A DNA stretch of 64,000 nucleotides from Clostridia bacterium (GTDB lineage Bacteria; Bacillota; Clostridia; Christensenellales; UBA1242), in the NCBI GenBank assembly GCA_017467585.1, contig JAFUSR010000004.1, forward strand, positions 434,178 to 498,177, read 5' to 3'. The number at the start of each line of letters is the position of its first letter. Positions within the stretch are counted from its first letter, which is position 1. Shown in pieces: positions 4,470 to 29,301 of the stretch. Below the pieces are notes generated by a model. That model worked only from the letters and a program-made list of their open reading frames with translations. It had not been told where the DNA came from and searched no databases. The translations under genes and the position numbers were made by a program.

Positions 4470-7310
4470 ATGGAAAAAATAAAAAGAAGAAGTTTTTTAA
4501 TTATTTTTGCTTTAATTTTGATTCTGCCATTTGCATTTATTTTAACTGCTTGTGGTGGGGAAACATCTAAGTCAAAGGAAATAACAGATTTAAGAATTAG
4601 GCTTGGAGAAAACGAATGGGCTAATAGTATAAGCGTTGATTATGGAACAACAATCGGAGAGATGTTTGAGGATGCAACATTCTATTTTGTTTATAGCGAT
4701 GGTGAGAAGAAAGATGTTGTTGAGAGTAATTTTTCTGAAAGCGAATGGAATGAAATCTCAAACTCTTATGCTGAACAATATTTTGTTCAAATTGTAAATG
4801 AAGTAACTGGGGAAAGTAATTACGAGCCATACACTGGCAACACAACTTCAAGAGCCGTTCTTGAGGTTGGTCAGTATAGAGTAGATATTTCACTTAAGAA
4901 TAAGACAGCCTCCATTTATGTGAGTGTTTATCAAGCTTCACTGCAGTCAAAACAGTTGTCAGTTGTTATTTTGCCAAACGAGAATAACAATTATGGTAGT
5001 AAACTTAATGCTGTGCAAACTTATAAATATGGAATGCCTATAAATCATTTTGAAAATGATGAGGAAAACTACACCTCTGATTATAAAATTTATGTTATAG
5101 ATAAACAAAACAATAACAAGGTGCTTTCTGGCACAGATGTTAAACAGGTTTATGCTTTGCCAGAAGTTTATGAAGGTGGGGTTTATTCTTCTTTTGACGA
5201 CATTGAAGAAGGCGACAACTTGCTTGAATATTATAATACAATCGAGGTTTTGGACGATTCTAGCAATATTGATGAAAGGGTCACTTTTCAAAAGAAACAA
5301 GAGTTTTTGCTTGCATATGGATGGCAAATCACAACAGGACACAACTATTCTGATAATTCTCTTATACTGCAAACAGAAAGATTAAAACCAGGCAATTATC
5401 ATTTGTTTGCAAATTATGAGAGCAAAAACTATCAATCTATATACACAGAGCCACTTACCGAACTTGTTGTTGAAAAAGGTGTTTTTGACTTAAAAAAGGC
5501 TATTAGATATAGTGGTCAAGAATGGAGCGAAGAAAATGCTGAAGAAATTATAAGCAAAGTAAAAATAAACATAAACTATACCTTTAATTTAGATTCCCCA
5601 CTTAACACAGTGGATTATTATGGAAATGTGGTAAAAGCTCTCACCGCTACACAACTCAACCAATACAATGTTTCAGCAAATGCTGATTACAATTCTGACA
5701 ATGCCTTTTCAGATGTTGACTTTGGATATGCTGGAGGTGGATACACAGGGCTTAGCTTAGGAAAATTTAGGCTTGTTGAGAAAGATGCAAATAGAAAAGA
5801 TATCAGATTTGACTGTGACAGTATTTTAGATGAAAGTGTGAAATTTGTATATATTCTTGATAATAATGATTATTATGAAAATGACCCTACAGTTTATACA
5901 ACAGATGACTTTGATGAAGTTTCGCTTAACATTTCAAAAGGTCAGGTTTCAAGACCATATGCCTCAATTGGAAATAATCTTTCAAGAGAATATACCGGCG
6001 AGAGTCAAACAGTTGAAAATGCTGGGTTAAATATAGATAATTACGATAAGGCGCTTCTTGAGCAAATAGGCATATATAGTGCAACTGAAATAGGCAACTA
6101 TTCAATCACATTCAAACTTAAAGACAGCACAAACTTCTGCTTCAGAGAAGAAGACAATAGTTATAACTATGGCGAAGATGATGGAAATGGTGGAAGAACA
6201 TTTACCTGGGCAATCACACCTATTGAATTTAGTGCCTGGGACTGGGGATATGATCATCTTGAAGGAAGCTACAACGAAGAACAACTTGAGTATGTAAGTA
6301 GCGTGCAATATATTTCTGGAGTTCATACATTAAGGGTTTCTCTTCCAAAAGACAGCAAATATGATTTGCTTAAATCGAAAGTTCCAACAGCTAAAATTGT
6401 TTGGGAAAGAGTGGAAACAAACAATGATGCCATTGCAACACTTACTCCAGATGGAGATGATTTAGTTATTACTTTTGCAAGCGAAGGATATGTCAATCTC
6501 AAGGCAACAATTGCAGAAACAGACTACTCTTTGGCTTTTGAAAATGCAAACTTACAAGTTGTTATAAACAACGCAAGTTTCACACAAGAACAAAAGGCAG
6601 CAATTTTGGCCGAAATTGGTGCAGAAGAAAAAGATAACGATGTATATGGACTAGATGCAAATCACACGATTAGAATTAGCAGAATTTCAATGCTTCTTCC
6701 AAATGTTTTGCCAGATTACACAGATGTGCTTAATCCACCAGCAACAGCAGACCTTGGAGAATGGAAAATATACTACAATGATGGAAATGAATACATTGAA
6801 AAACACAATGGTTCTCACCTTGACGGCGAAGACACTATTGGCTGGATGTTTAGATTTATTCCAAGTGATGATATGTTTAATGGACTTTGGGTCTATGTTG
6901 ATTTCATAAATGACATTGAATTCTATAACGAAGATATTCCAACGGAAGCTATTGATGCTCTTAAACAAGATGTCCCATTTACATTTGATACAACAACAAA
7001 TAAATATATAGCAACAAACTCTATCACTATGGAAAGAACTGGAAATTCAGTAATGTTGCCAGACAATACTCTTGTTGTGACATCTGAAAATGGTGGATAT
7101 CTTGAATATGAAGGCATTGAAGGAAAGTGGAGAGTTTATGCTGATGATGTTCCTTTTGAAAATAGATCAAACTATTATTTCGATGTTGAAGGTCAATCTG
7201 AAGAATGGATAACATCAAGTGAAAGAGTTTGGACAATTCAATTTGTTCCTAGAAATACAGGCTATAATAATGTAGTTATAAACGTTAATGTAATTATTCC
7301 AAATAATTAA
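4470..7310 (+). CDS. Large surface lipoprotein, function unknown
   Basis: 946 aa. Signal peptide with lipobox LTAC-GG. Asn/Tyr/Glu-rich extracellular-type composition. RBS AGGAGG. Extended -10 TGTTATAAT at 4434-4442. Confidence 0.75.
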   Translation: MEKIKRRSFLIIFALILILPFAFILTACGGETSKSKEITDLRIRLGENEWANSISVDYGTTIGEMFEDATFYFVYSDGEKKDVVESNFSESEWNEISNSYAEQYFVQIVNEVTGESNYEPYTGNTTSRAVLEVGQYRVDISLKNKTASIYVSVYQASLQSKQLSVVILPNENNNYGSKLNAVQTYKYGMPINHFENDEENYTSDYKIYVIDKQNNNKVLSGTDVKQVYALPEVYEGGVYSSFDDIEEGDNLLEYYNTIEVLDDSSNIDERVTFQKKQEFLLAYGWQITTGHNYSDNSLILQTERLKPGNYHLFANYESKNYQSIYTEPLTELVVEKGVFDLKKAIRYSGQEWSEENAEEIISKVKININYTFNLDSPLNTVDYYGNVVKALTATQLNQYNVSANADYNSDNAFSDVDFGYAGGGYTGLSLGKFRLVEKDANRKDIRFDCDSILDESVKFVYILDNNDYYENDPTVYTTDDFDEVSLNISKGQVSRPYASIGNNLSREYTGESQTVENAGLNIDNYDKALLEQIGIYSATEIGNYSITFKLKDSTNFCFREEDNSYNYGEDDGNGGRTFTWAITPIEFSAWDWGYDHLEGSYNEEQLEYVSSVQYISGVHTLRVSLPKDSKYDLLKSKVPTAKIVWERVETNNDAIATLTPDGDDLVITFASEGYVNLKATIAETDYSLAFENANLQVVINNASFTQEQKAAILAEIGAEEKDNDVYGLDANHTIRISRISMLLPNVLPDYTDVLNPPATADLGEWKIYYNDGNEYIEKHNGSHLDGEDTIGWMFRFIPSDDMFNGLWVYVDFINDIEFYNEDIPTEAIDALKQDVPFTFDTTTNKYIATNSITMERTGNSVMLPDNTLVVTSENGGYLEYEGIEGKWRVYADDVPFENRSNYYFDVEGQSEEWITSSERVWTIQFVPRNTGYNNVVINVNVIIPNN

Positions 7311-18938: not shown

Positions 18939-20015
18939 ATGTCAAGTTCACTCAAACAAAAGATAAGAGTTTTGCGAAAGGTAAAGCCTATCAACAGCAG
19001 TGCTATTGATGATTTTTGCAATGAGGCATTTTCTGATTTTGTCGCTGATGGTGTTCCTTTGCTTTATAAAACAGTGGTAGACAAGTTTGCCACTTATCAA
19101 TTGTCTATTCAAACAAGAGAAGATCTTTCAGATTATTTTGTTAAATGTTTTTATGCTTACAGAAGAAGATTTTTGAATCATTGTGAGGTAAATCCTCATT
19201 TAAAACATAATATATTCTTTAAAATACTTGCAGATTCAAAATATGATGAACAAAATTGGAAAAACTCAATCGCCACAAGATTTGATCACTTGGGTGACCA
19301 ATATAATTCAATTCAAAGATTTTTGTTTTTAACAACAATCGTAGACGACATAAACAATGCTTATAAAACTATTGTGGGAGAGAAGGCTGATGTTTTTGTT
19401 GGCGCCGAAGATAAAAAAGGAAATGTGATGAGTTTCTTTAATCAAGGAGAAGGTTTCATTCACGTAAAGACACAGGATTTTAAAAAAGAAAAACAGCCAA
19501 CAGAGTGCAGATTTTATTTAAATTTAAAATATGAAAATATTCCTGCAGTCATTGATTTAGTTATGAATATGGCAAGAAAAAAGCATTTGCCACTTTACTA
19601 TAAATTTTCTTGCGAAAAGAGACCAGAAGCTCTGCTATATTATTGCAGTTACGAAGAAGCTGACGAGCTCCTCAACATTTTAGACAAAATAAAAAAGAAA
19701 AATCCAAAGTTGTTTGATGGAGCAGAAAAAATTCCAGCCTATATGGGCTCAATTAATGGCTACATTGGTTTTGCAGAAGAACCAGTGGAGAGTGTCAAAG
19801 AATCATCATACACCTCAAGACTTGTTGACTACATAAACGAAGTCATGAAAGTTGTCAACAATTATCAACAAAAAGTGATAACCAAAGATCAATACGAACA
19901 AATGAGAATTAATCTCTGCGAAAAATATAATATTCCAAGAAAATCAAAATATTGGTTTTTAAACAAAACCACATTTGAAGAATTAGAAAAAGATGGCTTT
20001 GAGTTTGGTGAATAA
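18939..20015 (+). CDS. Hypothetical protein, possibly HopA1-like family (unverified)
   Basis: 358 aa, good RBS AGGAGA. Pattern CRFYLNL ... [14 protein letters not shown] recalls HopA1-like proteins, from memory only. No signal peptide. Confidence 0.55.
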
Positions 20016-20020
20016 TTCAC

Positions 20021-20049
20021 TTGACAAAATTATGTTCTAGTGATAGAAT
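20021..20049 (+). promoter_or_regulatory. SigA-type promoter of rpsU (TTGACA-17-TAGAAT, TG-extended)
   Basis: TTGACA 20021-20026, 17-nt spacer ending in TGA, TAGAAT 20044-20049. Confidence 0.6.
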
Positions 20050-20089
20050 ACCAATCGAAAAAGCAACCGCAAGAGGAGGTGAAACAAGC

Positions 20090-20269
20090 ATGTCAACCGT
20101 TAAAGTAGGTGAAAACGAAAACGTTGAAAGTGCAATTAAACGCTTTAAACGCAAATGTCAAAAAGATGGTATCATTGGTGATATCCGCAAACGTGAAGCA
20201 TATGTAAAACCTTCTGTTGCAAAAAAGAAAAAGAGCGAAGCAGCAAGAAAACGTGCTCGCAAAGGCTAA
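20090..20269 (+). CDS. rpsU: 30S ribosomal protein bS21
   Basis: 59 aa from ATG 20090 (GAGGAGGTG upstream). Basic. [20 protein letters not shown]. Confidence 0.9.
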
Positions 20270-20354: not shown

Positions 20355-21200
20355 TTATCTCAAATCTTTTAATATTTTCATTGTATCTTCATCAAAGCAA
20401 ATTGTTTTGCTTGATATTTCTTCACTTGCTATTGGATAATCTTTATTTATGCGAATAAGATTAAAGTTTTTGTTTTGATAAACCATTCTTTCAAATGGAT
20501 ATTTGATTATTGCAGGAGTATTATAACCAACCCCAATTTCAATTAAAACAACTTTTTTATCTTTTATTTTGTCAAGAAATTCTTGATAGAATTCAGCGTG
20601 CTCATACCAGCCAGCGTCTTGAACAAACTTGTCATCTGCTCTTAAATTCATTTCCATATTTCTGCCACAAACAGGGCATTTTGGAATAAGGTCGCTTGGA
20701 ATTTTGCCGTCCTTTTGCTCAAAATACATTTTTTCAATAAGTTCTTTGTTGTCATAAGTTTTATCGTGGCAAGGAACAGAACATTGAAACAAGCCATAAT
20801 CGCCTTGTGTGTAAAATAGCTTATTTTTGTCAAATCCAGCAATTTGAAATTGATGGTCAACGTTTGTTGTAATGACAAAGTAATCTTTGTCTTTTACTAA
20901 ATCAAAAAGTTTTGAGTATGCTTTGTTTGGTGTTTGCTCCAAATATCTATTTATATAAACATATCTTGACCAATAAGCCCATCGTTCTTCTTCTGTTTTG
21001 TAAGGATAAAATCCACCAGCATACATATCTTTGAAACCATATTTTTCACTAAAATCTTTGAAATACTTATCAAACTTTTCGCCAGAATATTCAAATCCGC
21101 CAGCAGTTGAAAGTCCAGCACCTGCGCCAATCAAAATATAATCTGCATTTGCGATAATTTGTTTTGCTTTTTCAATTCTATCTTTGTAATTTTCTTTCAT
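20355..21200 (-). CDS. Class M sirtuin-like (SirTM-type) NAD-dependent protein ADP-ribosyltransferase
   Basis: 281 aa. GAGAGLSTAGG NAD loop, TTNVDHQF with catalytic His, Zn site FQCSVPC ... KCPVCG. Overlaps the upstream macro gene. Confidence 0.7.
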   Translation of the reverse strand: MKENYKDRIEKAKQIIANADYILIGAGAGLSTAGGFEYSGEKFDKYFKDFSEKYGFKDMYAGGFYPYKTEEERWAYWSRYVYINRYLEQTPNKAYSKLFDLVKDKDYFVITTNVDHQFQIAGFDKNKLFYTQGDYGLFQCSVPCHDKTYDNKELIEKMYFEQKDGKIPSDLIPKCPVCGRNMEMNLRADDKFVQDAGWYEHAEFYQEFLDKIKDKKVVLIEIGVGYNTPAIIKYPFERMVYQNKNFNLIRINKDYPIASEEISSKTICFDEDTMKILKDLR

Positions 21201-22020
21201 ATAAACTCCTATCTATATCTTTAAAAACATTAAACACGACTTTTATATCATACTTATTTTCTTTAAGCCAATTTTTTACTGTATCAACCGCAATGTCGCA
21301 GGCAATGTCATTTGGGAACATAAACTCGCCAGTGGAAATACAACAGAATGCAATAGATTTTAAGTTCATTTCTTTTGCGAGTTCTAGTGAACTTATATAA
21401 CAATTTGCAAGGTCTTGTTTATCTTTTTCTGTGAGTTTGCCATAAATACAAGGGCCAACAGTATGAATTATATATTTACTTGGCAAGTTATAGGCATTTG
21501 TAATCTTTGCTTTTCCATTAGGTTCTTCGTGGCCTTGTTTTTGCATTATTACATTAAGGTCATTTCTCACCTGAAACCCAGCAGCTGAAATGATGATATT
21601 GTCTATGCAAGAATGGAGTGGAATAAAACAACCAAGAAGCTGATTGTTGCCTGCGTTAACGATGGCATCAACAGCCATTGTTGTAATATCTCCTTGAAAA
21701 ACTGCAATATTTTCATCAAAATTTAGGTCATTTAATGTAATTTTGCGTTTTTCATTTGTTTCGCTTGAAAGTAATTTGTCTTGAAGTTCAAAAAAATCTA
21801 TGCCAAAGTCAAATGGTGGAATTTGATTAAGTATCGCTCTTAGCCAAATCCTTTTCTTATCAAAACCCACAGAAAAATCAACATTTACTGAAAAGTTTTG
21901 CTTAATTATTTTTAGCAAACTATCAACAATATTTTCTTTTTCCACGACAGACAAAACCAAAGTGGATTTTTCTTTTGGCCCTAAATCTATTAAGTTTTTG
22001 TAATCTTTTAATTCTATCAT
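21178..22020 (-). CDS. Macro-domain protein-ADP-ribose hydrolase (SirTM-associated type)
   Basis: 280 aa. VFQGDITTMAVDAIVNAGNNQLLGC, HSCIDNIIISAAG, GKAKITNAYNLPSKYIIHTVGP, AFCCISTGEF. Confidence 0.8.
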   Translation of the reverse strand: MIELKDYKNLIDLGPKEKSTLVLSVVEKENIVDSLLKIIKQNFSVNVDFSVGFDKKRIWLRAILNQIPPFDFGIDFFELQDKLLSSETNEKRKITLNDLNFDENIAVFQGDITTMAVDAIVNAGNNQLLGCFIPLHSCIDNIIISAAGFQVRNDLNVIMQKQGHEEPNGKAKITNAYNLPSKYIIHTVGPCIYGKLTEKDKQDLANCYISSLELAKEMNLKSIAFCCISTGEFMFPNDIACDIAVDTVKNWLKENKYDIKVVFNVFKDIDRSLYERKLQR

Positions 22021-22029
22021 ATTACACCT

Positions 22030-22608
22030 TTATTGTATTTTTATAAACAAATCTTCTTTGAGTGTTTTTCTTGCACCTTTTTCCATAATGCCAAAACCAA
22101 TTTTATACATATCTTCAAGTGGAATTATTTCACTTGCAAAAGTTGATAAGAGAATTTCAATCATACCATTCAAAAATGCGTTTGATATATCATCTTTAAC
22201 CTGATTGCCTGTTGTTTGTTCTAGGCCAATATCCTTTGCAAACTCTCGTTTTATTATTTCCCTATACTCAATCGCAAAATCTCCACCTCGTTGTTCCATA
22301 ACAAGTGGAATTAAAAACTTTCGGTTATTGTTGAAAAGATTTCTTAAGTCTATTGTTAGTTTGTTGAACTCTTTATCCTTTCTGTTTTGATTATTAAGAG
22401 TTTGTTCTAAAAGATTTATTTGATTTTCTTTTATTGAATTTAAAACATCATCTAAATTATCAAAATAAAAATAAAATGTTGATTTATGAACTTTTGCTTT
22501 CTCTATAACATTTGTTATTGTAAGTTTTTCTTCTTTTATAAACAAATCCCAATAAGCATTTTCAATTTTTGTGATTGCCCGCTGTCTTGCTTTTGAATAT
22601 TCAGCCAT
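22030..22608 (-). CDS. TetR/AcrR family transcriptional regulator
   Basis: 192 aa. N-terminal HTH (ITNVIEKAKVHKSTFYFYFDN). 9 nt upstream of the macro gene, so a three-gene operon. Confidence 0.8.
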   Translation of the reverse strand: MAEYSKARQRAITKIENAYWDLFIKEEKLTITNVIEKAKVHKSTFYFYFDNLDDVLNSIKENQINLLEQTLNNQNRKDKEFNKLTIDLRNLFNNNRKFLIPLVMEQRGGDFAIEYREIIKREFAKDIGLEQTTGNQVKDDISNAFLNGMIEILLSTFASEIIPLEDMYKIGFGIMEKGARKTLKEDLFIKIQ

Positions 22609-22728
22609 AATTTCTCCTTAAATTTTTCATATTATATCAAAAATCCGACCATTTGTCTATTTTTGACTAACATTTTTCAAAAATAATTGGTAAAATTATA
22701 TTAGATTTATTAAAAGGAGGAAAATGAT

Positions 22729-22890
22729 ATGCCTTGCAAGAAAAAACCAGCACCTGCTTGTGGAACTGCTGACCCAAAGAAAACTGCTCCAGCTTGTGGA
22801 ACTGCTGACCCAAAACCAGCACCTGCTTGTGGTAGTGCAGACCCTAAGCCAGCACCTGCTTGTGGAACACAAGACCCAAAAAAGAAATAA
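22729..22890 (+). CDS. 53-aa tandem-repeat Cys peptide, candidate RiPP precursor (absent from the ORF track)
   Basis: ATG 22729 lies 8 nt after GGAGG (22716-22720). Reads MPCKKK PAPACGTADPK KTAPACGTADPK PAPACGSADPK PAPACGTQDPK KK. Immediately upstream of an rSAM/SPASM gene. Confidence 0.7.
   Translation: MPCKKKPAPACGTADPKKTAPACGTADPKPAPACGSADPKPAPACGTQDPKKK
22747..22881 (+). repeat. Four in-frame tandem repeats (33/36/33/33 nt) encoding PAPACGxxDPK
   Basis: Units at 22747-22779, 22780-22815, 22816-22848 and 22849-22881, differing mostly at synonymous or conservative positions. Confidence 0.9.
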
Positions 22891-22902
22891 CAAAACAAAA
22901 AG

Positions 22903-22942
22903 GTGCTAACTTATTTTTTGATGTAAGTTAGCACTATTTTTT
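22903..22942 (+). terminator. Hairpin plus T-tract between the peptide gene and the rSAM gene (partial terminator or attenuator)
   Basis: Perfect 11-bp stem GTGCTAACTTA/TAAGTTAGCAC (22903-22934) followed by TATTTTTT. The rSAM RBS follows directly. Confidence 0.6.
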
Positions 22943-22952
22943 AGAGGATTAT

Positions 22953-23993
22953 ATGAAAGATTATTTTGCTATTCAATGGCACATTACAGATTATTGCGAC
23001 CAGCGTTGCAAACATTGCTATATTTTTTCAGAAGGACACCCTTTTCTTGTAACAACTCCAATGGACAAACTCACACATATTTTGCAAGATATTCTCTCAT
23101 TGTGTGATAAAATAAACCGATTGCCATATATTTACTTGACTGGTGGAGACCCAATTTTGCACCCAAACTTTTGGCAACTTTTGGAGCTTTTTCATAAACA
23201 TAATGTGAGATTTGCAATTATGGGCAATCCATTCCATTTGACAGAAGAAAACTGCAAAAGAATGAGAGATTTGGGTTGTGTGAAATATCAAGTGTCACTT
23301 GATGGGCTAGAAAAAACTCACGATATGTTCCGAAAACCCGGAAGTTTTAAGGCAACACTTAAAGCCATTGACACAATCAAAAATTCTGGAATGTGGGTTG
23401 CCGTGATGTCAACAGTATCAAAGACAAATGCAAAAGAAATTCCAGAACTTATTGAACTTATGGATAAACTTGGCGTTGATGTTTATGCAGTTGGAAGATA
23501 TTGCCCAACAAACACCCACAAAGCTTATGACCCTAATATTCATATGGCACCACTTGAATATAAAGCATATATGGATAGTTGCTACGAAAAATATGAGAAA
23601 TTAAAAGATTCAAAAACAACCTATCAATTAAAAGACCATTTGTGGACACTCTACCTTTATGAAAAAGGATTGTTTAATCCACAAAAGGACTTGCCCAATA
23701 ATGCAATAATTGATGGTTGCAATATGGGAAGAAACCATATAACGATACTCCCAACTGGAGATGTTTACGCTTGCAGACGAATGGACTCAAAAGTTGGAAA
23801 TATATTTGAAAACGATTTATACACTTTGTGGACTAGCACAAAATATGATGAATACAGACAATATGACAAATTTATAAAATGCAACAAGTGTGAACTCAAA
23901 GCATATTGCAGAGGTTGCCCATCAGTTACTTTCGGTTACACTCACAATATGTATGACGCAGACCCACAATGTTGGAAGGAGATAAAAGAATGA
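22953..23993 (+). CDS. Radical SAM/SPASM-domain enzyme, candidate peptide maturase
   Basis: 346 aa. CDQRCKHC (Cx3Cx2C) at residues 15-22. C-terminal C-x12-G-x4-C and CNKCELKAYCRGC (Cx2Cx5Cx2C) plus a distal Cys, a SPASM-like pattern. Confidence 0.8.
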   Translation: MKDYFAIQWHITDYCDQRCKHCYIFSEGHPFLVTTPMDKLTHILQDILSLCDKINRLPYIYLTGGDPILHPNFWQLLELFHKHNVRFAIMGNPFHLTEENCKRMRDLGCVKYQVSLDGLEKTHDMFRKPGSFKATLKAIDTIKNSGMWVAVMSTVSKTNAKEIPELIELMDKLGVDVYAVGRYCPTNTHKAYDPNIHMAPLEYKAYMDSCYEKYEKLKDSKTTYQLKDHLWTLYLYEKGLFNPQKDLPNNAIIDGCNMGRNHITILPTGDVYACRRMDSKVGNIFENDLYTLWTSTKYDEYRQYDKFIKCNKCELKAYCRGCPSVTFGYTHNMYDADPQCWKEIKE

Positions 23994-24937
23994 AAGCTGT
24001 TGTATTTGATAAAATAACAAATAGTGATGACATTGTTTTAAGTGAGATTGAAAAACCAAAAGCAAAAAAAGGTTGGATTGTGGTCAAAGTCCTAGGATTT
24101 GGACTTAACCACTCTGAACTAATACTTCGAACAAATGAGATAAATGCCGATTACATTAAAAAGCCAATCGTTCCCGGGATTGAATGTGTTGGCGAGGTTG
24201 AAGAAAGTTTGGATAAAAATTTTAAACCCGGCGACAAAGTTTGCTCTATTATGGGTGGAATGGGCAGAAGTTTTAATGGAAGTTATGAAGAATATGCACT
24301 TTTGCCTGTGAACAAGGTTTTTCACATCAATTCAAAAATGGAAAGTAAATATTTGGCTGCTATTCCAGAAACATTTTTCACTGCATATGGCTCTCTTTTT
24401 GAATGTTTACAATTAAAAAAGGGAGAAACCTTGCTTATTCGTGGAGCAACTTGTGCTCTTGGATATGCGGCCATTCAACTTGGCTTGGCAGTGGGGGCAA
24501 AAGTTATTGGAACAACACACAAAAAAGAAAAAATGCACTTTGTAACTGACCTTGGTGCGCAGTGTATTTTGGATAATGGAACAATTGGTGGCACAGTTTA
24601 TGCAAACAAAGTTTTGGAACTTATTGGCCCTAAAACATTAAGGGACAGTATGCAATGTTTGTATCACGGCGGGATTTGTTGCAACACTGGTATTCTTGGC
24701 GGAGTTTACTATTTAGACGAATTTGACCCAATCAAGGAAATCCCAAACGGAACATACTTAACAGGATTTTTTTCAAACTATCCAACACAAGAAGATATGG
24801 ATAACATTTTCAAACTATTAGACAATGCAAACATAAAACCATTCATTGGGGCAAGCTTTAAGTTTAATGATATAAAAAAAGCAATAAAAGCTCAAGAAAA
24901 AGGTGTTGACGGAAAAATCGTTGTAACAATGGAGTAA
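23990..24937 (+). CDS. Medium-chain dehydrogenase/reductase (quinone oxidoreductase/ADH-like)
   Basis: ATG 23990 overlaps the rSAM stop (ATGA). GroES-like N-terminus and Rossmann segment IRGATCALGYAAIQLGLAVGAKVIG. Confidence 0.7.
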   Translation: MKAVVFDKITNSDDIVLSEIEKPKAKKGWIVVKVLGFGLNHSELILRTNEINADYIKKPIVPGIECVGEVEESLDKNFKPGDKVCSIMGGMGRSFNGSYEEYALLPVNKVFHINSKMESKYLAAIPETFFTAYGSLFECLQLKKGETLLIRGATCALGYAAIQLGLAVGAKVIGTTHKKEKMHFVTDLGAQCILDNGTIGGTVYANKVLELIGPKTLRDSMQCLYHGGICCNTGILGGVYYLDEFDPIKEIPNGTYLTGFFSNYPTQEDMDNIFKLLDNANIKPFIGASFKFNDIKKAIKAQEKGVDGKIVVTME

Positions 24938-24948
24938 AGGATAAGATT

Positions 24949-25827
24949 ATGGAAGATATTTCTTACAAATGTAATTTTGTTGTAGATAAAAGCAAGTGTA
25001 TAAAATGTGGCAAATGTAAAAATGTTTGCTCTGGAATGGTTATTGAATACGATAAACAAGGTTTTCCATACATCAAGCCATTTGAGCGCTTTGGTTGGCG
25101 TGGCTGTTGGAGATGTGAACACTGCCTTGCGGTTTGCCCTGTGGGAGCTATTTCAATCTTTAACAAAAAGCCAGAGAACTCACTCCCACCACCAGACAAA
25201 AACCTTGGCGAACAAATGGAAAGACTTGTCAAATTCCGCAGGTCTTGTAGAAGATTTTTGGATAAAAATGTTGAGCCAGAGATTATAGACAAAATTCTGT
25301 CGGCACTAGAAAATGCCCCAACTGGTGGAAATGCCCAAAATGTAGAATATACTGTGATAGATGACAAAGAACGAGTAAAACAAATTTGGAATGTTGCCTA
25401 TAAAAAAATGGATGAGCTTGCTCGTGAGCATATTTACACTCATAGTTTTAGTGATTTCTACTATAAAAAGATGAAGGAATCTGAAAAAACAGTCCGAAAA
25501 AATGATTTGCTTTTTTGTGGTGCTCCACATCTATTTATTGCTCACGAAAAATGCGTGGGCAAATGGGCAGAAGATAGCAAAAACAACTGCAACATAGCAA
25601 CTGCATATTTTGACCTGCTTGCAAATTCATTTGGTCTTGGAACGGTCATCATGTCATATTCAAGTGAAGTCCTAAACGAACTTGTTCCAGAAGCAAGAGA
25701 AATGCTAAACATTCCAAAAGACCACTTTACAGGTCTCATTGTTGGATTTGGTTATCCAGAGATAAAATATGCCCGTGGAACGCAGAAAAATAGAAAAGCA
25801 AAAATACATAGATACAGAAAAGAATAA
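24949..25827 (+). CDS. 2x[4Fe-4S] ferredoxin domain fused to a nitroreductase-family domain
   Basis: CIKCGKCKNVC and CEHCLAVCP motifs, then nitroreductase-like RRSCRRF, PTGGNAQN. Confidence 0.75.
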   Translation: MEDISYKCNFVVDKSKCIKCGKCKNVCSGMVIEYDKQGFPYIKPFERFGWRGCWRCEHCLAVCPVGAISIFNKKPENSLPPPDKNLGEQMERLVKFRRSCRRFLDKNVEPEIIDKILSALENAPTGGNAQNVEYTVIDDKERVKQIWNVAYKKMDELAREHIYTHSFSDFYYKKMKESEKTVRKNDLLFCGAPHLFIAHEKCVGKWAEDSKNNCNIATAYFDLLANSFGLGTVIMSYSSEVLNELVPEAREMLNIPKDHFTGLIVGFGYPEIKYARGTQKNRKAKIHRYRKE

Positions 25828-25831
25828 ATCA

Positions 25832-26001
25832 TGGCATTTAAACGTGTGCTTGTCTTGATACAAGTCGGTGTCGCTTTGCTCCACCGAAGACAAGCACACT
25901 CCTAAACAAAACTTGCTGAACTTAAACTGCTTGAATGGAAAATAACATGAGCGAAAAAGGCGTCCACATGCTGAAGCGATTGTGGTACGCCTTCTTTTTT
26001 T
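25832..26001 (+). ncRNA. Candidate structured RNA (or ssDNA-form element), copy 2, paralogous to 4236..4379
   Basis: Starts 5 nt after the nitroreductase stop. Core 25832-25897 matches the reverse complement of 4314-4379 at 64/66 positions. Ends in a 12-bp bulged hairpin (25957-25993) and CTTTTTTT. Confidence 0.4.
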
Positions 26002-26632
26002 GCTCATGTATATATTTTCACAGGAACATTCAAGCAGCAAACTATTCTCTAAAAACATTTGTTAACTCTTGTTTTTATTTGCGAATACTTGTAAATAGTT
26101 GTGCCCAGTACATGGTATTTTCTATTTTTTCGTGATACTCTCAAATTGCCTTAGCGAACAAGTACACATAAAGTAAGCATAAATTCAGCATACTTTCCTT
26201 ATTTGGGTACTTCACATTCCGTATATCTTTATGCTAAGGTAAAATCGCTTTTAGTTGAAAGTCGACTAACTAAAAGCTAAGTAATATCAAATGAAATCAA
26301 AAACAAGGCATATAAACATCAAGAAGATGTCAAATAATGTCATTCACTTTTTGACTTTTAAATGATATTACTAAATTGTGTTTTTAATTGGTGCACAAGT
26401 TAAAAATGCAAAAACTGAATAAAAAGGACAACGCAAATGTTTAACAAATTAGAATTAGAATAGAGTTGGTTAAGTTTAGTTAAAAAGAATTCGTGTCGCA
26501 CAATGGCATATTAAAAAAATCACCTACCCAACCTTAGGGGAAATATAAGGCAGTTAACATTTTGGCGTAGAAAAAATAATCTTTTTCTATGTCTTTTTTA
26601 ATTCCCAAAAATCTAAAAAAGGAGTTAAAAAA

Positions 26633-26761
26633 ATGCAAAAAACAACTAACGAAATCAAAAATGTGCTAGATTTATCGCTTATTAACCATGAGTTTATTGT
26701 TGCCATGCTGAATTTAATCCTTAAAGAAAAGGAGAAGCAAAATGGACTATCAAGAAACTAA
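26633..26761 (+). CDS. Possible 42-aa small ORF upstream of rep
   Basis: AAGGAG 7 nt upstream. MQKTTNEIKNVLDLSLINHEFIVAMLNLILKEKEKQNGLSRN. Overlaps the rep start. No homology recognised. Confidence 0.25.
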   Translation: MQKTTNEIKNVLDLSLINHEFIVAMLNLILKEKEKQNGLSRN

Positions 26762-27617
26762 AGTATATTTCGATGGTAGTCACTATATTGGCATACCAAA
26801 AACGACTCAAAGTTGGAAAAAGAAAAAGCATAAATCAGCAAACCCTACTGAAACAGAATCGAAAGTTAAAGAAATGTTAAACGAATGTACTGATGAAACT
26901 AGAAAGGAAAAGAAAGAACGAATTGTAAATGAACTGAACGAAAAAGTAAAAGATATTGAACAAACTGAACAGATTGTAAATAAAGTAATTGAAAAAGAAA
27001 AACGAAATCGTATTGTTAGACTCACGAGATTATTCAGAAAAGCCAATTTGCAAGAATGGAACTACTTTTGTACTTTCACTTATGATTCCACAAAACTTAC
27101 TGAACAAGAATTTAGAGTTAAATTTCTAAATTGCTTAAGACATCTATCCACTCGCAAAGGTTGGAAATATATTGGTGTCTTTGAAATAAGCCCTGAACAG
27201 AAAAGATTACATTTTCATGGAATATTTGTAATAGCCGAAATGGTTGGCGAATTAAAAGAAACTAAAGATTATTCAACCAGAACTCATCAAATGCAAATTA
27301 CACACCAAAACATATTCTTTTTGGAGAGATTTGGAAGAAATGACTTTAGCAAAATAGAAAATGACAACCATACTCAAGAAGCTATTATGTATATGCTCAA
27401 ATATATTAGAAAAACTGGTGAAAAAGTAATCTATTCAAAGCACTTACAGACATTTTTTATAACAGATATACTCGAAGATGATGTTGTTTGCACTATCGGA
27501 CAAGAAGATAGAAAAATACTACTATTTGACAACTTTAGATGTTTGGATTTTTCCACTGGAGAGGTTTTAGGAACTGTTAGCAAAGAGTTAATAAATAAGC
27601 TACCAAAGGGTTATTAA
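26742..27617 (+). CDS. HUH-superfamily rolling-circle replication initiator-like protein
   Basis: 291 aa. Motif I FCTFTYD, motif II (HUH) LHFHGIFV, motif III YMLKYIRK, in canonical order. Confidence 0.7.
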   Translation: MDYQETKVYFDGSHYIGIPKTTQSWKKKKHKSANPTETESKVKEMLNECTDETRKEKKERIVNELNEKVKDIEQTEQIVNKVIEKEKRNRIVRLTRLFRKANLQEWNYFCTFTYDSTKLTEQEFRVKFLNCLRHLSTRKGWKYIGVFEISPEQKRLHFHGIFVIAEMVGELKETKDYSTRTHQMQITHQNIFFLERFGRNDFSKIENDNHTQEAIMYMLKYIRKTGEKVIYSKHLQTFFITDILEDDVVCTIGQEDRKILLFDNFRCLDFSTGEVLGTVSKELINKLPKGY

Positions 27618-27792
27618 TCTTTCGCCCGCGAATTGTGCACAAAAACTCTTAGTTATCAAGGGTAAATTGTATTGCTTTTCGCAACCCTTGACAACTAAAG
27701 AAAGATTATAACTCTTTAAAATATTTATCCCTTTTTGTTCTTTCGCTGGGTATCGAAAGATAAATAAAAAAAATAAAAGGAGATAAAACCAA

Positions 27793-29301
27793 ATGAAAAC
27801 AGCAGTAATATATGCTAGATATTCCAGTACAAACCAAACTGAACAAAGTATTGAAGGTCAAGTGCATGTATGTCAAGACTTTGCGAAACGCAACAACATC
27901 ATCATAGTTGATTCATATATCGACCGAGCAATAAGTGGAACAACAGATGAAAGAGATTCATTCCAAAGAATGTTAAAAGATAGCAACAACAAAAAATGGA
28001 ATTATGTTTTGGTGTATAAGTTAGACAGATTTGCTAGAAGCAAATATGAAGCTGCAATACACAGAAAACACTTAAAAGACAATGGAATTAAATTATTGTC
28101 TGCTATGGAAAACATCCCAGAAACACCTGAAGGAGTTTTGCTTGAATCACTCTTAGAAGGAATGAACCAATACTTTAGCGAAGAACTTGCACAAAAAGTA
28201 AGTCGTGGACTACACGAATCAAGAATGAAAGGACATGTTATAGGAGATGTATCTTTCGGCTATATAAAGGAGAATAAAATGTTAAAGATAAACGAAGGAG
28301 AAGCAATAATCTTAAAAAGAATATTTGAAGATTATGCAAGTGGAAAAACAATATTGCAAATTTCAAGAGATTTTGAAAAAGAAAATATAACAAGAAATGG
28401 ACACAAGTTTATACCACAAACAATAAGAGATATGCTTAAAAGAAAACTATATACTGGCGAATATTCAGTTAATGGCAAAGTATATGACAAAATCTACCCA
28501 CAAATAATAACCAAAGAACTATTTGAAAAAGTGCAAAAAAGAATGGACTTAACAAGATATGGTTGCAGAAAAGATAATCATGAAATATTTAGAATTAAAG
28601 ATAAATTATATTGTGGACATTGTAATAGAAAAATGTATCCATTTTCAACAAAATCTAGAAATGGAAACTATCTAAGATATTACAAATGTATTTCAACAAA
28701 GAAAGATGATAACTGCTTAACTAGAATAATTGAAAAGAACTTTATAGAAGGTGTTGTAGATAAATTCTTTAAACAACAATTCACTATACAAAAGAATCTA
28801 GATACAATAACCGATTTAATCTATGAAGAAAACAAGAAACGAACAAAGAACAATAATTCACTTATAAGCATTAAATCTGACTTGCAAAGAGTAAATACAG
28901 CCATTTCAAATATAATGTCTGCAATAGAAAAAGGAATAATCACTGAAACAACAAAATCTAGATTAGAAGAACTTGAATTAAAAAGAAAAGATTTAAGCGA
29001 AAAATTGATAATTGAAGAATCTAAAGTTAGCTATGAATTAACAAAAGATAATATACAGAATTTCTTTAAACTAACAATGAAAGAATGTCCTGACAAAGCA
29101 ATAGATTTATTTCTAAAGTTTGTTAAAGTATATGAAGATAAAATAGAAATTGGACTTAATTATTCAATAAACCAAAGCAATACTGAATATGTGCCAATTA
29201 AAAGTTATGCATTTACTGAAACACTTGAAATAACTAGAACTTTCAAAGGTGGAACAACTAGAACAAAAACTTTAACTTATGATGTCTATTCAGTAGTCTA
29301 G
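27793..29301 (+). CDS. Large serine recombinase (integrase)
   Basis: 502 aa. Resolvase-type N-terminus AVIYARYSSTNQ..SIEGQ, recombinase domain, Zn-ribbon CGHCNRK..YYKC, coiled-coil tail. Confidence 0.85.
   Translation: MKTAVIYARYSSTNQTEQSIEGQVHVCQDFAKRNNIIIVDSYIDRAISGTTDERDSFQRMLKDSNNKKWNYVLVYKLDRFARSKYEAAIHRKHLKDNGIKLLSAMENIPETPEGVLLESLLEGMNQYFSEELAQKVSRGLHESRMKGHVIGDVSFGYIKENKMLKINEGEAIILKRIFEDYASGKTILQISRDFEKENITRNGHKFIPQTIRDMLKRKLYTGEYSVNGKVYDKIYPQIITKELFEKVQKRMDLTRYGCRKDNHEIFRIKDKLYCGHCNRKMYPFSTKSRNGNYLRYYKCISTKKDDNCLTRIIEKNFIEGVVDKFFKQQFTIQKNLDTITDLIYEENKKRTKNNNSLISIKSDLQRVNTAISNIMSAIEKGIITETTKSRLEELELKRKDLSEKLIIEESKVSYELTKDNIQNFFKLTMKECPDKAIDLFLKFVKVYEDKIEIGLNYSINQSNTEYVPIKSYAFTETLEITRTFKGGTTRTKTLTYDVYSVV

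Follow-up and report, generated by a model that had tools for sequence, protein, structure and literature searches.

What is the function of a short peptide that consists of four cysteine-containing repeats and is encoded directly upstream of a radical SAM/SPASM enzyme? The question is raised by a locus in a 64 000-nucleotide stretch of contig JAFUSR010000004.1 from a Clostridia bacterium (the window, in what follows). The initial annotation of this DNA had proposed an undescribed operon for a peptide made on the ribosome and modified after translation (RiPP), with the enzyme as its maturase and a chemistry like that of PapB. As judged from sequence comparison, the locus at 20355..25827 is a complete ACGX system, made up of two divergent operons around one control region of 120 nucleotides. 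We put at about one half the probability that it is an intracellular peptide carrier system for redox or electrophile stress, analogous to the lipoyl-GcvH-L/SirTM operon.

The repeat peptide and its radical SAM/SPASM enzyme

The gene at 22953..23993 (forward strand) encodes a radical SAM/SPASM enzyme of 346 residues. It matches the NCBIfam family TIGR04340 ('radical SAM/SPASM domain protein, ACGX system') from end to end (profile positions 1–341 of 341; 492.4 bits, cutoff 400, E 7e-148), and the identical NCBI entry already bears the ACGX-system name. By these matches the locus belongs to the curated ACGX system (TIGR04340/TIGR04341 and the Pfam family PF27855, Target_ACGX, for the peptide) and is not of a new kind, contrary to what had first been proposed. 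The ACGX family is defined by bioinformatics alone. Our literature searches found no paper on ACGX biochemistry (TIGR04340/TIGR04341), nor did those on SirTM with radical SAM, on thiooxazole with SPASM and on DUF1848 return anything on the ACGX system; most subscription journals lie outside their coverage, and publication is possible.

The cysteines of the enzyme form the motifs C15/C19/C22 (Cx3Cx2C), C256-x12-G-x4-C274 and C310-x2-C-x5-C-x2-C322, followed by C340. In 49 homologues all of them are invariant except C19, which is conserved in at least 90 per cent. Pfam places a Radical_SAM domain at residues 11–169 and a SPASM domain at residues 256–314 (43.7 bits, cutoff 21.5), and the cysteine pattern in the initial annotation is confirmed. 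Pfam finds no RRE domain on the enzyme; Radical_SAM starts at residue 11, and the AlphaFold2 model (pLDDT 91.8) enters the barrel at strand 4–10.

Among characterised families the nearest by hidden Markov model (HMM) is SbtM (TIGR04082), the second-best match, with 183 bits against a cutoff of 350; the enzyme is not a member. The whole ACGX enzyme aligns to positions 198–515 of the SbtM profile, and SbtM has about 200 extra N-terminal residues. The SbtM substrate carries its cysteine or selenocysteine among small residues followed by glycine (GGUG, comparable to ACG); unlike the ACGX peptides, it contains selenocysteine and has no tandem repeat. SbtM is reported from Geobacter and Desulfobacteria. 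The best full-length match of the model in the Protein Data Bank (PDB) is the anaerobic sulfatase-maturating enzyme anSMEcpe (TM score 0.72–0.74, a likeness of architecture only). Enzymes of that family (anSME) also lack an RRE domain, are of similar size and act on the β-hydrogen of a peptidyl cysteine, but the score against TIGR03942 is 57.3 bits for a cutoff of 349, the locus has no sulfatase gene or C-x-P-x-R motif, and the ACGX substrate is a dedicated repeat peptide. A firm clustering with sulfatase maturases, which had been named as an outcome that would speak against a RiPP enzyme, is not observed. Other scores are 96 bits for MftC and 64.8 bits for PapB (NF047865, cutoff 340), the last being lower than those for SbtM, AhbD, NirJ and MftC.

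The peptide gene is located at 22729..22890 on the same strand, 62 nucleotides before the enzyme gene. It encodes 53 residues (MPCKKKPAPACGTADPKKTAPACGTADPKPAPACGSADPKPAPACGTQDPKKK) in the order MPCKKK, PAPACGTADPK, KTAPACGTADPK, PAPACGSADPK, PAPACGTQDPK and KK, that is, a six-residue N-terminus and four PAPACGxxDPK repeats, each with the motif C-x3-D. The reading of four in-frame repeats from the ATG at 22729 was reproduced, as was the Shine–Dalgarno sequence GGAGG 8 nucleotides before it (22716–22720). The wrong-frame ATG at 22724 is only 3 nucleotides from GGAGG. The four DNA repeats (33–36 nucleotides each) are 81–89 per cent identical. Their differences comprise 20 synonymous and 9 non-synonymous changes, with counts of 6, 6 and 26 at codon positions 1, 2 and 3, and this bias towards the third position indicates selection in the peptide reading frame. 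That frame is the sole stop-free sense frame in 9/9 close loci. Two antisense frames are likewise open in all nine, which accounts for the antisense artefacts in lists of open reading frames (ORFs).

All eight close genome homologues have an orthologous ORF, with 2–6 repeats, upstream of the enzyme gene. The exact peptide of the window was not found in a collection of about 15 billion proteins, which holds the enzyme, the downstream oxidoreductase (MBQ8468716.1) and the nitroreductase (MBQ8468717.1) of the same Clostridia metagenome-assembled genome (MAG). The description of the gene as unannotated thus stands, and on the evidence of its sequence and conservation we regard it as confirmed to be a real gene. 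Between the two genes there is a hairpin of 13 base pairs followed by a run of T (22902..22945, forward strand), which is likely to be a partial terminator or an mRNA stabiliser; the intergenic region (22891..22952) folds with a minimum free energy of −18.3 and a z-score of −6.7.

The curated peptide model TIGR04341 ('ACGX-repeat peptide') gives the window peptide 12.3 bits, below its cutoff of 28. Canonical peptides score 79 bits (locus L104; L numbers denote sampled loci) and 96.8 bits (L023), and there is no match on the peptides of L001, which is of the same type as that of the window, and of L012, of the methanogen type (Methanosphaera). The model covers one peptide subclass, and annotation consequently drops the substrate gene, in the window as well. 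By its scores the window peptide is a member of a subclass that the curated model misses.

Redox, ADP-ribosylation and regulatory genes of the two operons

The enzyme gene is followed by two redox genes on the same strand. The first (23990..24937) encodes an MDR-family NAD(P)H oxidoreductase of the quinone-oxidoreductase type, with the domains ADH_N and ADH_zinc_N, and its start overlaps the stop of the enzyme gene (ATGA). Its best NCBIfam match is a PIG3-type quinone oxidoreductase (140 bits, below cutoff). At the position where zinc alcohol dehydrogenases carry G-H-E it has G-I-E-C-V-G, which we take to mark the zinc-free quinone/enone-reductase type. Eleven nucleotides further on, the gene at 24949..25827 encodes a 2x[4Fe–4S] ferredoxin domain (Fer4, residues 11–70) fused to an FMN domain of the nitroreductase family (residues 94–269). 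Overlap and gap are both as the initial annotation gave them. Its account of the locus holds for these four genes, from the peptide to the nitroreductase; the operon that adjoins them on the opposite strand had been missed.

This second operon contains three genes. The first (22030..22608, reverse strand), divergent from the peptide gene, encodes a TetR-like regulator with a weak match to TetR_N (17.7 bits, below cutoff). After 9 nucleotides follows the gene of a Zn-macrodomain protein-ADP-ribose hydrolase (Macro; 21178..22020, reverse strand), with 311 bits against the equivalog model NF003163 (cutoff 272); its best PDB match is 8rsi, and 5kiv, the protein-ADP-ribose hydrolase of S. aureus, is also matched. 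The entry 8rsi is a macrodomain of Methanobrevibacter oralis, from a minimal operon with the SirTM/Zn-Macro pair only (PMC11490716). The last gene (20355..21200, reverse strand), whose start is overlapped by the macrodomain gene by 23 nucleotides, encodes a SirTM-class sirtuin, i.e. a protein ADP-ribosyltransferase. It matches the S. pyogenes SirTM structure 5a3a over residues 8–255 (E 2.4e-64, 221 bits) and Pfam SIR2 weakly. SirTM and Zn-Macro are adjacent in one operon and so form a pair.

The 120 nucleotides between the operons (22609..22728) contain promoter-like sites on both strands and the ribosome-binding site of the peptide gene. By consensus matching only, the minus-strand site (22659–22631) agrees at 11/12 positions and has an extended −10 TG; the plus-strand site (22667–22696) agrees at 9/12, also with TG.

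On the far side of SirTM, at 18939..20269, there is an ORF of 358 residues with a weak match to the HopA1 effector family (30 bits), followed by an ORF that appears rpsU-like (ribosomal protein S21). Beyond the nitroreductase gene, about 900 nucleotides without a long ORF (25828..26741) precede the genes of a replication protein resembling REP_ORF2/G2P (Pfam, 40.8 bits) and of a large serine recombinase with Resolvase, Recombinase and Zn_ribbon domains (26742..29301). The region 25828..29301 may be the border of an integrated element. A scan of the whole window against Rfam gave no match.

Conservation of the locus in genomes and metagenomes

The comparison included eight close genome homologues of the enzyme (67–77% identity, all from rumen or gut MAGs), 80 metagenome loci (49–71% identity) among at least 574 confirmed metagenome matches, and the contexts of selected database proteins. 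After collapsing enzymes at least 95 per cent identical, there are 79 non-redundant loci, 34 of which have at least 3 kb on both flanks. Components were counted by tblastn. SirTM was recounted in this way, single-linkage clustering having joined peptide ORFs of at least 80 residues to the SirTM cluster. Three loci with enzymes of 25–27% identity (L009–L011) were dropped; by ORF reading they have an AhbC/AhbD/NirJ-type haem-biosynthesis look, with a HemB-like gene between two radical SAM genes. The ACGX system is found in Clostridia of the rumen and gut, in Erysipelotrichales-like genera, in Treponema and in methanogenic archaea.

An ACG-repeat ORF accompanies the enzyme in 72 of the 79 loci and in 33 of the 34 with long flanks. 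This answers in the affirmative whether homologues are preceded by cysteine-repeat ORFs and, with TIGR04340, supports the proposed pairing of such a peptide with a dedicated radical SAM/SPASM enzyme. MDR is present in 46/79 loci (21/34 with long flanks), and is the gene directly downstream of the enzyme in 44 of 50 sampled MDR-bearing loci; nitroreductase in 23/79 (10/34); and a PNPOx–ferredoxin fusion (PNPOx-Fer4) in 18/79 (10/34). At least one of the three is found in 71/79 loci (32/34). The links to MDR and nitroreductase seen in the window therefore extend to the family, and in two independent sequencing runs nitroreductase forms the C-terminal part of the enzyme itself (447 residues; L016:1429–2772 and L017:1012–2355), with a 44-residue ACG-repeat peptide ahead and a SirTM gene after.

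Regulators of the HxlR type occur in 56/79 loci (25/34) and TetR-like ones in 8/79 (5/34), one or the other in 64/79 (30/34). The TetR-like protein has homologues, 52–54 per cent identical, that are encoded at the corresponding divergent site in L001, L002 and L004–L007; L021 likewise has a TetR-like gene at this site, and other subclasses have HxlR there. No protease or transporter is among the eleven largest recurrent clusters of neighbouring genes; one neighbour cluster of four loci has a weak, sub-threshold match to ABC_transp_aux. Four features had been listed as unusual for this locus: there is next to no leader, the enzyme has no RRE domain, no protease or exporter is adjacent, and redox enzymes are coupled to it. 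They are traits of the family.

The SirTM gene is present in 27/79 loci (16/34) and Macro in 18/79 (13/34), with SirTM and/or Macro in 16/34 long-flank loci. The hydrolase is also present in 18 of the 27 SirTM-positive loci. In most of the 27, SirTM is downstream of the enzyme and shares its strand, with gene orders of several kinds; the match to it in L037 begins 5 nucleotides past the enzyme ORF. SirTM is rare (we estimate no more than one copy in a genome), so that 27/79 beside one enzyme family is far above chance. When four homologues were sampled from the SirTM side, L104 carried a full system, in the order HxlR / Target_ACGX, radical SAM, MDR, DUF1848, Macro, SirTM, and the other three did not; the link between SirTM and ACGX is thus frequent but not obligatory. 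DUF1848 occurs in 9/79 loci (5/34). It adjoins the Macro–SirTM pair in three of the four sampled SirTM loci (L101:5130–6062, L103:5333–6262, L104:5312–6250) and follows the enzyme and MDR in the closest enzyme relative of the window (L105:2127–3056). Neither a PDB entry related in sequence nor an informative NCBIfam match was found for it.

The peptides share throughout the family only the motif [A/S]CG. Canonical ones have an N-terminal part of 20–45 residues with the motif SAQG or SAQS, and then units such as ACGSACGAGDK doublets, joined by linkers rich in proline, glutamate and lysine. The subclass to which the window peptide belongs, termed PAP, has one ACGxxDP per unit, Pro-Ala-Pro linkers and 6–10 residues ahead of the first unit. 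It is in this that the window differs from the canonical ACGX system, with which it shares an enzyme above the TIGR04340 cutoff, the upstream ACG-repeat gene, the gene order and the absence of RRE. Peptides of methanogens carry TACGSEIN or TACGSKVS; the ending of others is ACGAK. An acidic residue four positions after the last cysteine of the unit is very common but not universal; C-x3-D is present in every repeat of the window peptide and of all its PAP-type relatives, but is not conserved in the family as a whole (TACGSEIN, TACGSKVS, ACGAK).

Repeat number changes quickly. Four Methanosphaera contigs (L012–L015, about 4670–4915) encode an identical enzyme and peptides with 7, 5, 5 and 6 TACGSxxx repeats. 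This variation, from 5 to 7 beside an identical enzyme and from 2 to 6 in the relatives of the window, suggests that each repeat is an independent functional unit.

The gap between peptide and enzyme genes is 35–260 nucleotides in 47 loci and most of these gaps fold into a strong hairpin (z below about −2.5 relative to shuffles); a run of T after it is found in few loci only, by a crude criterion. There are 16 other loci with a gap of less than 15 nucleotides, which suggests translational coupling there instead. In some loci a cupin-domain gene (L028, L031, L036, L071) or a PNPOx-Fer4 gene (L047, L070, L078, L089, L095, L097) lies between the two, placing the peptide 550–780 nucleotides upstream of the enzyme. 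No convincing peptide ORF was found in L047 and L078. In L105, whose enzyme is 87 per cent identical to that of the window, the contig starts 100 nucleotides before the enzyme gene and the peptide is not recoverable.

A candidate intracellular stress carrier and its alternatives

The family-wide gene context would shift the system from a 'RiPP antibiotic' to an 'intracellular stress module', and argues against the idea of a maturase for a secreted, antibiotic-type peptide. A parallel is found in the operons of Staphylococcus and Streptococcus in which SirTM ADP-ribosylates lipoylated GcvH-L at Asp27, near the lipoyl-lysine, and the Zn-macrodomain reverses the modification; the GcvH-L/LplA2/SirTM/Zn-Macro operon includes two flavin oxidoreductases and has a role in oxidative stress (PMC4518038).

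That extended operon (GcvH-L, LplA2, SirTM, Zn-Macro, OYE, LLM) and the ACGX locus share the SirTM/Zn-Macro pair and, beside it, a small sulfur-bearing carrier (putative in the window), its modifying enzyme and two NAD(P)H/flavin oxidoreductases; both have an acidic residue near the sulfur-bearing site. They differ in the carrier (a folded lipoyl domain rather than a repeat peptide), in the modifying enzyme (lipoate ligase rather than radical SAM) and in the reductase families. Neither GcvH-L nor LplA2 flanks SirTM/Macro in the window (TetR-like on one side, rpsU-like and HopA1-like on the other), the rest of the window not having been scanned for GcvH/LplA.

By this analogy the peptide would be neither cleaved nor exported and would stay in the cell as a multivalent carrier, modified by the radical SAM enzyme at the invariant X-Cys-Gly of each repeat. 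The modified sulfur groups might act as a buffer for redox state or electrophiles, or be recycled as a substrate by the linked reductases, with MDR and the flavin/Fe–S proteins acting as reductases of the peptide carrier. SirTM and the Zn-macrodomain would switch the carrier off and on by reversible ADP-ribosylation, for which the conserved aspartate four residues after the cysteine is a plausible site, comparable to Asp27 beside the GcvH-L lipoyl-lysine. The HxlR or TetR regulator would be the stress sensor and would induce both operons under oxidant or electrophile stress.

As to the chemistry, the likeliest route would be abstraction of the cysteine β-hydrogen and oxidation, as in SbtM, where a 5-thiooxazole is formed and the thiol is retained, and in anSME. 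SbtM abstracts this hydrogen from the cysteine or selenocysteine of a G-C/U-G motif and gives a 5-thio(seleno)oxazole with an alkylatable sulfur (PMC9204691). The invariance of X-Cys-Gly across the ACGX peptides fits a chemistry centred on cysteine. The alternative would be a PapB-like thioether from cysteine to aspartate. We rate oxidation slightly above the thioether, and neither above about one in three.

Several observations weigh against this carrier. Gene context and analogy are the basis of every functional step in the model. SbtM is matched far under its cutoff, and the great frequency of C-x3-[D/E] in the repeats fits a thioether of the PapB type, whose formation would use up the thiol. 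SirTM and Macro are missing in half of the loci or more, among which are the seven closest genome relatives (L001–L007). Three of the four SirTM homologues sampled from the SirTM side have no ACGX genes within 7 kb, so that SirTM must have some target besides the ACGX peptide, and what the linked genes have in common could be a regulon and not a substrate. Likewise, HxlR-type regulators together with quinone reductases and nitroreductases are a generic electrophile-stress gene set (the YodB, HypR and QorR regulons), and these genes could simply be co-located, with no substrate in common. A pair of MDR and ferredoxin–nitroreductase genes, 83 and 89 per cent identical to those of the window, occurs without radical SAM enzyme or peptide in L106 and L107 (6047–7885), directly after conjugation genes of the PcfK/PcfJ type; such reductases can therefore act independently.

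A narrower proposal is that 'lone' SirTM/Zn-macrodomain pairs in anaerobes act on the modified ACGX-repeat peptide, which would take the place of lipoyl-GcvH-L and supply the physiological substrate, or one among several, that such pairs have so far lacked. According to PMC11490716, GcvH-L is the only SirTM target known, the other SirTM/Zn-Macro systems having none identified. The peptide would be a multivalent sulfur carrier installed by the radical SAM enzyme, recycled by the quinone-oxidoreductase and flavin/Fe–S reductases, and gated by reversible ADP-ribosylation of the aspartate in each C-x3-D unit. We hold this proposal only tentatively and think it rather doubtful. At least one C-x3-[D/E] is present in every SirTM-positive locus with a real peptide, but also in most SirTM-negative loci, so that the presence of the acidic residue does not discriminate between them.

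Among the other explanations, the one nearest to the initial annotation is a ranthipeptide-type RiPP natural product, with one thioether from Cys-S to Asp-Cβ per C-x3-D repeat, as PapB makes in freyrasin; the product would act in signalling or as an antimicrobial, and the redox enzymes would serve for tailoring or as donors of electrons. PapA, the freyrasin precursor, shares with the window peptide several in-line Cys-X3-Asp motifs, and PapB the radical SAM/SPASM architecture. PapB forms its cross-links in both CX3D and CX3E motifs and accepts other spacings too (PMC9413430); n = 0–6 is tolerated and minimal substrates can suffice (PMC9413430; PMC12715619). Every repeat of the window and PAP-type peptides has C-x3-D, and C-x3-[D/E] follows the last cysteine of most repeats in the family. 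The SPASM motif is complete, and RiPP operons typically have such a hairpin behind the precursor gene.

We nevertheless consider the ranthipeptide explanation unlikely. PapB has an RRE domain and PapA a leader (PMC9413430), whereas the ACGX enzyme is without RRE, the window peptide has six residues before its first repeat, and the gene neighbourhood is another. Of the proposed PapB chemistry, the C-x3-D motif in all four repeats stands, and membership of the PapB family does not, given 64.8 bits for a cutoff of 340, no RRE and no leader. No acidic +4 residue is available in TACGSKVS, in ACGAAKPEEK, in terminal ACGAK or for the first cysteine of ACGSACG. The eleven largest neighbour clusters include no protease, exporter or immunity gene, and the regulators are of the stress type, HxlR or TetR.

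Quite unlikely, too, is a system like that of mycofactocin, in which the enzyme would make a peptide-bound redox cofactor as electron carrier for MDR and the flavoproteins, with SirTM and Macro as unrelated neighbours. In the mycofactocin system a radical SAM/SPASM enzyme and a short peptide are paired with dedicated dehydrogenases, and here MDR, found in 46/79 loci, is directly downstream, often with stop/start overlap; the MftC score is 96 bits. There are, however, no recurrent peptidase or other cofactor-excision genes, 33/79 loci have no MDR in the sampled flank (many of these flanks being short), and a closely related MDR exists without the system. Tandem repeats in variable number would also be more expected of a multivalent carrier or buffer than of a cofactor used stoichiometrically.

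Still less probable is a role in metal handling, whereby the cysteine repeats, perhaps as thiooxazoles like those of the metallophores made by MNIO enzymes, would chelate copper, zinc or other thiophilic metals within the cell. The cysteine array is dense, with carboxylates nearby, and the closest characterised relative has the thiooxazole chemistry of SbtM; thiooxazole peptides are described as metallophores (PMC12668002). On the other hand, the regulators are HxlR and TetR, the recurrent neighbours include no metal-sensing regulator, metal exporter or chaperone, and the reductase and ADP-ribosylation genes have no obvious metal-binding role. The explanation of the small ORF as an unexpressed, chance open frame in repetitive DNA, missed by gene callers and overlapped by two open antisense frames, is effectively refuted already by the third-position lean of its substitutions, its well-positioned Shine–Dalgarno sequence, its retention, as protein and not as DNA, upstream of the enzyme in 72/79 loci from Clostridia to methanogens, and the existence of a curated family for such peptides.

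The ACGX family is widespread and is held in curated databases, with no published biochemistry found; at least two peptide subclasses escape the curated peptide model, leaving a gap in annotation. The locus links this family to the open question of the targets of lone SirTM pairs, for which it offers a concrete candidate answer. The peptide, the radical SAM enzyme, SirTM, the macrodomain and MDR constitute a compact gene set for both questions. If the narrower proposal on lone SirTM pairs holds, gut and rumen anaerobes and methanogens would have an antioxidant system, or a buffer against electrophiles, that is made on the ribosome.

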